This document shows, in pieces, positions 2,832 to 11,778 of a DNA stretch of 64,000 nt (position 1 is its first letter; every line of letters begins with the position of its first letter). Origin of the DNA: Octopus vulgaris (taxonomy: Eukaryota); NCBI GenBank assembly GCA_951406725.2, contig OX597821.1, forward strand, positions 33,790,001 to 33,854,000, written 5' to 3'. A program made the translations under genes and the position numbers. The notes below the pieces were generated by a model. The model made no database searches. It was not told the DNA's origin and worked only from the letters and a program-made list of their open reading frames with translations.

Positions 2832-3219
2832 GGATCTTTTCGGTTTGAACGGCAGTTTTTAACATAATTTCTAGGTAACTAAAAAATTTTAAACTTCATA
2901 CACTGGTAGAATGTGTTTATAAAACATCTTTTTCTCTTGGCTTTATTGAGAAAATTCTATAGTTTGTAAGATATTTGTTGTTTTTTTCTTCGATTTCTGC
3001 AATTTCAACCAATCACTGACATCCATTGAGGTAAAAAAACATGCTGTGCCGTATGAATATGTCCCTCGTTTAAGAAACAGATTGGGTTTATTTACATTTG
3101 TGAAGAAAAAAAAGATACCCTTTCCCCACCCCTAACCCTAAAGCAGATCGATAGTAATTATGGATTACAATTTCATATGACACCGCTAGAAAAAACTGCC
3201 GTTCAAACCGAAAAGATCC
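2832..3219. mobile_element. MITE with GG-terminated TIRs and 8-bp TSD (Merlin-like)
   Basis: TIR GGATCTTTTCGGTTTGAACGGCAGTTTTT ... AAAAACTGCCGTTCAAACCGAAAAGATCC; perfect TSD AACTATTT at 2824-2831 and 3220-3227. Confidence 0.9.
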
Positions 3220-3242
3220 AACTATTTTCGATAATTCCTTTA

Positions 3243-3590
3243 TTTGTTTCAGTCATTTGACTGTGAGCAAATCGACGCTAGAGCTTTGTCATACTAGTAC
3301 TTATTCAAATCGGTCTCTTTTGCCGAACCTCTTAGTTACGGGGACGTAAACACACCAGTATCAGTTGTCAAGCGATGTTGGTGGGGCAAACACAGACACA
3401 CAAACATATACATATATGTACATATACGACGGGCTTCTTTCAGTTTCCATCTACCAAATCCACTCACAAGGCTTTGGTCGGCCCAAGGCTATAGTAGAAG
3501 ACACTAGCCCAAGATGCCACGCAGTGGGATTGAACCCGGGACCATGTGGTTGGTAAGCAAGCAACTTACCACACAGCCACTCCTGCGCCT
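3243..3590 (-). mobile_element. tRNA-derived SINE family A (internal TA/TG microsatellite)
   Basis: Reverse complement of GGCGCAGGAGTGGCTGTGTGGTAAG...GGTTCAATCCC head, with body and CAGTCAAATGACTGAAAC tail; many copies in the window. Confidence 0.85.
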
Positions 3591-3900
3591 ATATGATATG
3601 GATAAAAGGTCACATATCGAAAAATTAGATAAAATAGTTACTTGTGCAGCATTAAGTACTGTCCTTGTAACAAGACAAGCATCAACTATTCATCTAGGTC
3701 TTTGACACAGCTATTTGTTTACTCTGAAAAACAAAAAAAAACAAAAAGAACTACCTAGATCATTATATACAAAGCAATATGAAAAAACAATGAGCAATTA
3801 AATTCTGCTAATCACTCAGAAATATTTCAATCATATTACTCTACCACTGGTATTTGAGTACTCTTTTTTCCACCTTGTTTCACATTTATGTGTTTACTCC

Positions 3901-3949
<49 letters not shown>

Positions 3950-4031
3950 GTGAAAAGGAACACACGAGTTGATATATATGAAAAAACAAGTCAAGATAGA
4001 AAATGCTAAAATAATTTTGTAAAGAACATTT

Positions 4032-4069
4032 CAGTACCGGTTTCTGTCGTTTTGAGACCTTTTCAACTG
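4032..4069 (-). ncRNA. Hammerhead ribozyme-like motif (type I minimal, U3-A8 variant)
   Basis: Minus strand reads CAG-TTGAAAA-GGTC..GACA-GAAA-CCGG-TA-CTG. Confidence 0.6.
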
Positions 4070-4240
4070 TAACGATTAAATAATTAAATTTAGAAAAATT
4101 AAAAGAAAAGTTTTTTTAAAGGAATATTTGTATAGTGTTCAAATATAAGTGGCATTTTCTTTGTTTCTGCCTTTCTCTGTCTCTCTTGTTTGCACTGTGC
4201 AAATTTAATTATTTTTCTAAATTTAATTATTTAATCGTTA

Positions 4241-4278
4241 CAGTTGAAAAGGTCTCAAAATGACCGAAACCAGTACAG
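4241..4278 (+). ncRNA. Hammerhead ribozyme-like motif (type I minimal, U3-A8 variant)
   Basis: CAG-TTGAAAA-GGTC..GACC-GAAA-CCAG-TA-CAG. Confidence 0.55.
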
Positions 4279-4325
4279 AAATGTTCTTTATAAAATTATT
4301 TTAGCATTTCTATCTTGACTTGTTT

Positions 4326-4388
<63 letters not shown>

Positions 4389-6152
4389 AACACGTAGATT
4401 TGTTGAGTAGAAAGTAAGGTTTACTTTATTGATATAAAGTATTACATCAGATTTACAAAATACAAGTAGCCGTTAGTCTACTTATTTGCAAAACAGGATG
4501 AAGATTCCATTTTGAGGATGGGACGTTTTGCTTGCTGGCCGTTGCTATTGACATTCTGCCCTTCCCTGAAAAATGAAATAGGGCATTCTTGCCTGAAAAG
4601 GCATTCGATTGAAATATTTCTGAGTGATTAGCAGAATTTAATTGCTCATTGTTTTTTCATATTACTTTGTATATAATGATCTAGGTAGTTCTTTTTGTTT
4701 TTTGTTTTTCAGAGTAAACAAATAGCTGTGTCAAAGACCTAGATGAATAGTTGATGCTTGTCTTGTTGCAAGGACAGTACTTAATGCTGCGCAAGTGTTC
4801 TCTCCTGTCGTCTCTTTCACACACAAAAACAACAATAGCCATCAATATTAATAGATACAAAAGGACGGCACTACTTACAAGAACACTACAACCAATACTA
4901 TTATTACCAAAGATGACAACTAATAGCCTAACGAATACAAACTAGTACCACTACTAGTGAAACCAAAATCAGCATTAACACCACCACCATCATTAAAGTC
5001 GGTTCCTTGTAAGTTGACAGGGAATTCGATTGATTTCTATGTAAACCGCAAAATATTATCAGATGGATGTGTACTAGAATATTACTGGTATTCGTTTCCT
5101 ACGACTGATTTTTGAATTGCGATCACTGAATTCAAGTATCGAAGTAAGCCTATACAATAAAGCCACCCACTATCAGTTCCTGTGACACAGTCAGCTTCCA
5201 TCAACACGCGAACAGCAGTTAAAACGAAACTATAACGACAATTGCAGTAAATATCAAAGACAACGACAATTGCAGTAAATATCAAAGACAACAACAACAA
5301 CACACATACATTAAAAATTACAACAACAACAACACACATACAGTAAAAATTACAACAACAACAACAACAACAACAGAGCAACTACAAAAGCAACAAGCAT
5401 TGAACAACAGCTACCACGACTACAACAAAGGCAATTAATAAACAATTAACGAATAACGTCCGATAAAGAAGGAAAAGAAAAAAAACAATAGTACCGCCAC
5501 CAGCAACAGAAAGACAATATCTTGTAAGGAAATATTTTTAAATTTGTCAATTTTTGTATTGCTCTTTTAAACTTTTACAGTGTTATAAAAACGAATGGAA
5601 GGCAAGCTCAACGAATGCCGACTTGTTGAGTAACAAGTTTGTTTTCATACGTTGATGTTTAGCCCTGGGTCAACCCTGATAAAGGAAATCTACGGTCAAA
5701 TACATTTTCGTCTTGGTTATCTTCTTCGGTATTTCTCACAAAAGTCAAACTGAAAATAGTTTTGTTTTATCTATTTGTTCAGCAATTTCCGTGAAAAAAA
5801 AAAAAAATTTCTTTATTTCTTTTAATTTTGTTTTTCAGCTGAACAGTCTAGTATACAATCGCACACATAAACGTTTACTCATAGTCGAGTTGAACAGTCA
5901 AATACACGCCCACATATACCCTTTCACTTTTTTCATATGTATATACATACACATGCATTGTTTTCTGTTTTCATGAATCGCTTACGTTTATTTTGTTCTA
6001 TGTGTAAGTATACATGTATGTATGTGTATGTAAGTATATTTATTTATGTGTTTATGTGCTTGTATATATATACATGCGGGAGTTAGCACATAAATGTGAA
6101 ACAAGGTGGAAAAAAGAGTACTCAAATACCAGAGGTTGAGTAATATGCTTTA

Positions 6153-6234
6153 TTTAAAAGCAGCGGAACTGTCCGATGAACGGAAACGTGAAACTCCGAG
6201 TAACAATTTTTGTTAAATTTATGCTGCTTTTAAA
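6153..6234 (+). ncRNA. Hammerhead ribozyme-like motif (U4C) in a Penelope-type insert
   Basis: AACTGT-CCGATGA-ACG gaaa CGT-GAAA-CTC c GAG-TA-ACAATT, closed by the outer inverted repeat TTTAAAAGCAGC/GCTGCTTTTAAA. Confidence 0.65.
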
Positions 6235-6296
6235 TTTATATATATATATATATATATACGGCATAGTTTCGCCATATATACATACATACATATATA

Positions 6297-10362: not shown

Positions 10363-10690
10363 GGAGCCACACAGAAAAAAATGTAGTTAAATACTCTCAA
10401 ACGAAATAAATATCTATAAGATTATAGGAGAGGAAGTTGTAGGGGCGATATTTAATACATATATACATCGGTGCAGGCGTGGCTGTGTGGCAAGAAGTTT
10501 GCTTCCCAACCACATGGTTTACTCCCACTGCATGGCACCTTAGGCAAGTGTTTTCTAATATGGCATCTGGCCGACCAAAAAAACCTTGAGTGGATTTGGT
10601 GGACGGAAACCGAGAGAAGCCTATCACGCACGTACATATACACACACACACACACATACACATTGTGTTTGGGGAGAGTTGTATTGTCTT

Positions 10691-11475
10691 ATTTCTTTAT
10701 TGCCCACAAGTGGCCAAACATAGAGGGGACAAACAAGGACAGACAAAGGGATTAAGTCGATTACATCAACTCCAGTGCAAAACTGGTACTTAATTTATCG
10801 TTCCCCGAAAGGATGAAAGGCAAAGTCAACCTCGGCGGAATTTGAACTCAGAACGTAGCGGCAGACGAAATACCAATTTCTTTACTACCCACAAGGGGCT
10901 AAACACAGAGAGGACAAACAAGGACAGACAAACGGATTAAGTTGAATATATCGGCTTCCAGTCCGTAACTGGTACTTATTTAATCGACCCCGAGAGGATG
11001 AAAGGCAAAGTCGACCTCAGCGGAATTTGAACTCAGAACATAACGGCAGATGAAATACCTATTTCTTTACTACCCACAAGGGGCTACACACAGAGGGGAC
11101 AAACAAGGACAGACAAATGGATTAAGTCGATTACATCGACCCCAGTGCGTAACTGGTACTTAATTTATCGACCCCGAAAGGATGAAAGGCAAAGTTGACC
11201 TCAGTGGAATTTGAACTCAGAACGTAGCGGCAAACAAAATACCTATTTCTTTACTACCCACAAGGGGCTAAACACAGAGAGGACAAACAAGGCCAGACAT
11301 AAGTATTAAGTCGATTACATTGACCCCAGTGCGTAACTGATACTTATTTAATCGACCCCGAAAGGATGAAAGGCAAAGTCGACCTCAGTGGAATTTGAAC
11401 TCAGAACCTAACAGCAGACGAAATACGGCTACGCATTTTGCCCGGCGTGCTGAAGTTTCTGGCAGCTCGCCACCT
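10691..11475 (-). mobile_element. SINE family B with four tandem ~185-bp internal units
   Basis: Units start ATTTCTTTA at 10691, 10876, 11061 and 11245. The central GAAAGGATGAAAGGCAAAGT(C/T)(G/A)ACCTC motif is in each unit; the 5' head occurs only once (11420-11475). Confidence 0.85.
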
Positions 11476-11778
11476 TCGTATTGTCTTTATTGCCTTATTA
11501 TTTAGCATACTCATCGGTTAGATTTCCACTTATATTTTATCTTCCAATATTTTTGTTGCTTTTGCAACCTTGTCAATGGATAAATGATAAATGAGTGGAA
11601 ATCGAACTGGTGCAACATAATTTGCTTCAACACACGAATTCACTTAAAGAATCTTGCAAAGTAGATATGAAAATGATGTGTGTCTCTTTGTGGTTGTCCT
11701 CCACAACCAGTGTTGATATTTTTACATCCTCATAACTTAGTGGTTCAGCCAAATTGACCAATAAAAAATAAAGTACCC

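Follow-up and report, generated by a model that had tools for sequence, protein, structure and literature searches.

The foldback at positions 3972..4338 of the window, the whole 64,000-nucleotide stretch of Octopus vulgaris DNA analyzed here, is very probably (roughly 90%) the scar of a young, multi-copy Penelope-like element (PLE) of the Neptune type. A (TA)n tract contains two 5'-truncated 3' ends of this element, termed family 1, in head-to-head orientation. Each end carries a decayed hammerhead motif with a U3-A8 core, and the pair is predicted to lack catalytic activity. Taken by itself, this site is unremarkable retroelement debris, left by an insertion that has since decayed; the inserted family is new but belongs to a known kind of element.

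The inverted-repeat arms at 4001-4099 and 4211-4309 are 95% complementary, with a gapped extent of ∼3972-4099 and ∼4211-4338. Reading of the arms, strands, and core letters confirms the initial annotation, which described a foldback pair of hammerheads with a U3-A8 core. The left arm (3946..4196, minus strand) is an ∼250-bp 5'-truncated 3' end consisting of pseudo-LTR (pLTR) sequence and is 92 to 93% identical to the pLTRs of L080, a full-length family copy used as the reference for arm identities. It includes a "tail" extension of the pLTR (3946..3971, minus strand), which is confined to this arm and in full-length copies continues towards ORF1; an optional tail of 30 to 40 bp is described for PLEs in passages of PMC8557442 and PMC3846280. 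The right arm (4211..4329, plus strand) is a shorter 5'-truncated 3' end of ∼120 bp without a tail, 97% identical to the L080 pLTR. Sequence and predicted fold place a junction palindrome of 15 bp, two 7-bp arms around one base, at 4189..4203, and palindromes at inversion junctions have been described for PLEs (PMC3846280). The foldback is flanked by (TA)n tracts at 3903..3945 and 4330..4380, a sequence described as a preferred PLE target (PMC8557442). Transcripts of either strand are predicted to fold with the arms paired, at -193 and -180 kcal/mol.

Both arms contain a type I hammerhead motif, at 4032..4069 on the minus strand in the left arm (U3 at 4066 and A8 at 4061) and at 4241..4278 on the plus strand in the right arm (U3 at 4244 and A8 at 4249). 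Each reads UUGAAAA, as the initial annotation stated, and both arms retain all core letters: the Watson-Crick 3-8 pair, U4, G5, A6, N7, and A9, G12, A13, and A14, A15.1-U16.1, and H17. The unpaired base between A9 and G10.1 that is typical of min-HHRs is absent, and G10.1 adjoins A9 as in canonical motifs. G10.1-C11.1 and helices I and II are present in family copies, with helix II broken in the left arm and helix I in the right. The distribution of lesions reported earlier, stem II on the left and stems III and I on the right, is likewise correct. In the left arm, C11.1>A at 4045 breaks G10.1-C11.1, and loop II has an additional T>C change. In the right arm, G>A at 4272 destroys the short palindrome of helix III (CCGG in family 1), and T>A at 4277 breaks the middle pair of helix I. 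The predicted helix III self-duplex of the right arm reaches -0.2 kcal/mol, versus -10.3 kcal/mol for an intact copy. The consensus of the arms does rebuild an intact motif, and natural intact copies exist (e.g., L002 and L078). A per-position tally (86/116 intact), which retains duplicates and is biased to top matches, is used qualitatively.

Standard searches would miss the motif, as predicted, because an intact copy and the left arm score under the Rfam gathering thresholds and the right arm is not listed. The intact copy matches Hammerhead_HH9 with E=0.003 and 20.9 bits, far below the gathering score of 52 (RF02275); the left arm has 12.4 bits (E=4.7), likewise below the gathering score for the Rfam hammerhead families (clan CL00010); and the Rfam search of the right arm lists no hammerhead match. 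In the Rfam scan of the whole window, microsatellite matches dominate, with no hammerhead among the 150 of 308 matches listed.

The core described in the initial annotation is correct as U3-A8; the variant itself had already been published, also in PLEs (PMC3088659 and PMC4209133). Perreault et al. (2011) describe U3-A8 covariation in nature and refer to in vitro activity shown earlier (PMC3088659), and Cervera and De la Pena (2014) report ∼1,300 U3-A8 motifs in PLEs of Schistosoma, where opposite-strand hammerhead pairs lie 100 to 700 bp apart (PMC4209133). The core and the opposite-strand pairing are both known. A search on octopus and hammerhead ribozymes returned no title or abstract describing family 1; the work of Lunse et al. 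on PLE hammerhead variants and that of Przybilski and Hammann on 3-8 exchanges may already treat U3-A8 kinetics.

U3-A8 is the fixed core of family 1 and not a product of decay. A DNA search of the 2.8-Gb genome gave 902 candidates, of which the best 40 were scored and show 95 to 98% identity. A8 is present in every inspected copy covering the core and U3 in all but one. Exact 28-letter patterns match the genome 1,944 times with U3-A8 and 0 times with a reversed-pattern control, so chance does not account for them. Fixation of U3 and A8, which the initial annotation had proposed checking in genomic copies, holds for 1,944 of the 1,953 otherwise exact copies (99.5%); the remaining nine are C3-G8 (1), C3-A8 (3), G3-A8 (1), U3-G8 (2), and U3-C8 (2). 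Such fixation, seen inside a single young family, is a sign of common descent from one source lineage and not of selection on the copies. For the canonical C3-G8 double change, represented by a single copy (L094:1490-1530, G000:C13), the single-change counts predict ∼0.003 to 0.006 copies. This copy is truncated, 1.4 kb long, and shows neither a partner motif nor an A>G excess, and an ADAR-type origin was rejected on the latter ground. Two subfamilies differing at four positions immediately 3' of the cut site occur at L078:2975-2990 and in other copies, and both retain the pairing of distal helix I by eye.

Stepwise upstream extension through copies leads to full-length family 1 elements of ∼4.3 kb. 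In L078, pLTR hammerhead motifs at 2930 and 7168 enclose ORF1 (3014-4327) and an open ORF2 of 785 amino acids. ORF1 has no Pfam match. ORF2 matches RVT_1 (E=4e-8) and GIY-YIG (E=0.0012; 19.5 bits, below the 22.6 cut-off), and the Cys and His positions read from the sequence place a CCHH motif in the C-terminal GIY-YIG domain that follows the reverse transcriptase (RT). A C-x4-C-xx-C linker ahead of the endonuclease fits by eye the CX2-5CxxC of Neptune and Nematis in Fig. S2 of PMC8557442, where the post-linker spacing resembles the Neptune rows. The parent is thus assigned to the Neptune-type PLEs, a clade assignment based on motifs rather than on an RT tree. Direct pLTRs are 93 to 99% identical in all eight long copies compared. 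The hammerhead motif occurs in both pLTRs of L078 to L083, L164, and L169, and copies with an intact RT and GIY-YIG carry it in both terminal repeats.

In source elements, the hammerhead would likely cut the tandem transcript after A17, acting as a dimer joined by the palindromic helix III, probably assisted by protein, and would thereby trim the RNA upstream of ORF1. The dimer mode has been proposed for PLE hammerhead motifs, and published minimal hammerheads of PLEs cut weakly. Two sense motifs ∼4.3 kb apart could pair via this helix (predicted -10.3 kcal/mol). The Penelope element of Drosophila virilis has a 3' splice site at the corresponding place. For a 3' splice site directly before U3, no joint across the site is found in contigs of four presumed RNA runs, none of the listed runs being on record as RNA; these contigs cross the site unspliced, and as contigs indicate presence only, splicing is not thereby disproved.

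The sister family (family 2), with 63 to 70% amino acid identity to family 1 in ORF2, retains U3-A8, G10.1-C11.1, and a palindromic helix III (CATG), and 20 of 25 loci contain the GAAAC half of the motif. All three helices have changed in sequence; helix II reads GGTTC/GAACC. U3-A8 would then be a Watson-Crick swap retained by the lineage since before the split of the two families. Persistence of the core and of the helix III palindrome despite changed helices suggests that, in source elements, the hammerhead fold has been under selection, as judged from the two sequence families.

The alternative with the best standing, although an unlikely one, is that the family hammerhead is a non-cleaving passenger, in which U3-A8 arose by drift (CpG decay of G8 after C7, followed by a C-to-U change at position 3) and the fold persists because it serves protein binding or RT priming rather than catalysis. 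It draws on amplified mismatch subfamilies of other repeats in the genome. A generic hammerhead pattern gives 2,326 matches against 125 in the control, and a hand count of the 100 matches listed gives 80 U-A, 4 C-G, 13 U.G, and 3 C.A; a C3-restricted pattern gives 445 matches against 32, with ∼71 C-G and 29 C.A among the 100 listed, also counted by hand. At least 12 U3.G8 copies (12 of the 13 U.G among the 100 of 2,326 matches listed) form one retrozyme-like family, and a C3.A8 retrozyme-like lineage comprises 37 copies, some as 360-bp tandems. C at position 7 in both mismatch families makes CpG decay of G8 a likely route. A rough tree of 35 retrozyme-like monomers, with unsettled bootstraps and only its three starred clades used, groups U.G monomers with U-A monomers and, in a separate clade, C.A monomers with C-G monomers. 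That hammerheads may be parasites of PLEs is raised in a passage of PMC8557442. In the Poseidon element PAc from Anolis, the motif cuts only with protein and is dispensable for insertion in vitro, where hammerhead-dead mutants insert normally, and no read ends at the hammerhead cut site (as reported in part of PMC11167929). Since the Anolis motif is dispensable in vitro, that of family 1 may matter little.

Against a passenger stands the retention of G5, A6, A9, G12-A14, A15.1-U16.1, H17, G10.1-C11.1, and the helix III palindrome while all helix sequences differ between families 1 and 2. Moreover, large families are Watson-Crick at 3-8 (80 U-A plus 4 C-G of 100, and ∼71 C-G of 100, among the matches listed), and 3-8 covarying ribozymes are reported active in vitro (PMC3088659). 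The hammerhead fold is thus conserved; selection for catalysis is something we can still only infer, because mismatch subfamilies have spread and hammerhead-dead PLE mutants insert in vitro. The proposal that covariation suggests selection for catalysis stands in that U3-A8 is fixed and the fold is kept in the sister family, and it loses ground in that U3.G8 and C3.A8 subfamilies of other repeats have been amplified, which weakens strict covariation. These amplified mismatch intermediates bear on the question of whether PLE hammerheads need to cut. The retrozyme-like families of ∼360 bp include amplified subfamilies with all four Y3/R8 combinations (loci L174 to L177 with C3.A8, L178 and L179 with U3.G8, and L122 to L141 and L143 to L149). 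U3-A8 is the majority core of several large hammerhead families in this genome, amounting to thousands of copies, and CUGANGA-based searches therefore badly undercount these families.

As to the arrangement of the arms, the foldback is of a routine kind, because head-to-head pairs are frequent among the listed copies. At least 22 head-to-head neighbor pairs within 6 kb account for 44 of the 100 matches listed, all on one contig; the same matches include one tail-to-tail and two direct neighbor pairs. The head-to-head spacing among them ranges continuously from 173 to 4,267 bp. The insertion traits of Neptune-clade EN+ PLEs (pLTRs, an inverted 5'-truncated copy, a one-sided tail, and a (TA)n target) are present; passages of PMC8557442 and PMC3846280 report the last three of these for PLEs, together with palindromes at the junction. 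The endonuclease of the element would nick the (TA)n tract; one copy with a tail and one inverted copy without would then arise either by reverse transcription off the two target strands or by self-priming at the palindromic junction. At L022:1718-2422 and L033:7300-8362, a family 2 copy lies directly behind a family 1 3' end and shares its (TA)n tract.

A non-autonomous MITE-like or retrozyme element moving as a unit is a very improbable source of the foldback. The near-perfect terminal inverted arms, the many similar short foldbacks, and the retrozyme-like U3-A8 families of this genome would suit it, but the pair spacing is continuous (173 to 4,267 bp), junctions are not alike between loci, both arms are truncated ends of an autonomous element, and the locus has no tandem 360-bp monomer. 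Non-LTR retrozymes are built from non-coding tandem monomers of 200 to 400 nt, and the arms are the ends of an ∼4.3-kb coding element. That the arms form a functional unit, as a hammerhead dimer or in trans (sense plus antisense) with each supplying the loss of the other, can be set aside almost entirely: lesions in different helices and the dimeric action described for PLE hammerheads would fit, but the motifs lie on opposite strands, so that no single RNA holds both and they are unable to complement each other, the predicted fold of each strand is a long duplex, the helix III palindrome needed by a dimer is lost in the right arm, such pairs are a common insertion by-product, and the lesions are private or CpG-type changes like those across copies.

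For the preferred reading, an insertion scar, the differing lesions of the arms are independent decay and not complementation. A transcript of the locus would contain one sense motif and its antisense, and the predicted duplex of ∼130 bp would bury the sense motif, so that the transcript would serve as a double-stranded RNA substrate rather than act as a ribozyme.

Family 1 resembles the Cercyon PLEs of Schistosoma mansoni (PMC4209133) in the type I motif in terminal repeats, U3-A8, G10.1-C11.1, the short palindromic helix III, opposite-strand pairs 100 to 700 bp apart, and mostly truncated copies. In contrast to Cercyon, it has a helix II of 4 rather than 7 to 8 bp, lacks an unpaired base separating A9 from G10.1, shows very little sequence heterogeneity, being a young family, and belongs to a Neptune-type host element. 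The 3-8 covariation is the same as in the natural U3-A8 hammerheads of PMC3088659, described there as active in vitro; the relevant passage of that paper does not link them to PLEs, and here several large repeat families of a single animal genome have U3-A8 as their majority core. Neptune-clade EN+ PLEs (Craig et al., 2021, PMC8557442, and Arkhipova et al., 2013, PMC3846280) share the RT, the Zn-finger linker, the C-terminal GIY-YIG with CCHH, and the pLTRs, as well as the inverted 5'-truncated copy, one-sided tail, junction palindrome, and (TA)n target. As in PAc (PMC11167929), the pLTR hammerhead adjoins the ORF start and the tail marks RT start sites, whereas PAc has a C3-G8 core and belongs to a different clade.

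Family 1 further differs from Neptune-clade EN+ PLEs in its coding layout: two ORFs overlap in the -1 register and share a conserved U_UUU_UUA, whereas EN-bearing PLEs are described as single-ORF elements (in part of PMC6431247). Relative to ORF1, ORF2 is read in the -1 frame, and all 16 of the 16 long loci preserve within the overlap an intact U_UUU_UUA in the frame of ORF1. The slippery-site overlap is located at L078:4261-4327 and also occurs in L164, L165, L169, P0001, and P0002. A 12-letter island around the site is identical in the sister family, with flanking 12-letter blocks matching at 2 to 9 of 12 letters. Two ORF1 homologues, 39 to 42% identical, keep Phe-Leu near the ORF1 end amid unalignable sequence, and identity by codon position (0.71, 0.79, and 0.49) indicates coding constraint on ORF1. 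The first ATG of ORF2 in family 1 (codon 69) lies downstream of the LSKGLKF stretch at codon 51, which is common to both families and is a conserved N-terminal PLE motif. Contigs of presumed RNA runs span the ORF1/ORF2 junction without a gap.

The overlap is thus likely a programmed -1 ribosomal frameshift, as far as the reading frames and their conservation indicate. Counting against a frameshift, an in-frame ATG follows closely behind the slippery site in the sister family. No stable stimulator hairpin appears in the 70 nt past the site in any of four folded copies, all weaker than shuffles, with pseudoknots lying outside the fold model, and a search for fused ORF1-RT proteins found none among 218 candidates, a result of little weight. 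As a tentative and somewhat doubtful extension, this EN-bearing PLE may make its RT-endonuclease by programmed -1 frameshifting at U_UUU_UUA from an upstream gag-like ORF1, with a U3-A8 hammerhead just upstream and the mismatch subfamilies as a natural series for testing cleavage versus spread. For a group of elements described with one ORF, the intact parent copies would thereby suggest retrovirus-style translational control, with ORF1 followed by a -1 frameshift into RT-EN. The legend to Fig. 1 of PMC8557442 refers to a frameshift with a pseudoknot that sets an ORF1 apart, for a clade indicated in the figure itself; for Neptune-like PLEs of fish and molluscs, esterases are mentioned in a passage of PMC5408684. 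No published description of the U_UUU_UUA site or of this layout in EN-bearing PLEs was found in the literature searched, although other work, such as the Terminon paper, may cover the frameshift.

Further repeats surround the foldback in the window. It is enclosed by an outer inverted repeat (3640-3832 and 4607-4796) with 97% identity over 193 bp, which finds no match among the ∼160 loci compared and may have arisen by local duplication or from an inverted insertion of greater age. The end of another repeat family, of which L140, L176, and L057 contain related copies, lies between (TA)n tracts at 6075-6235; its hammerhead-like motif, at ∼6165-6205 on the plus strand, has a helix II of 3 bp and a C in position 4. 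Positions 3829-3902 are an inverted match to the tail part of this repeat. Finally, a tandem array of 184- to 185-bp units at 10690-11510 is related to repeats at 3-318.
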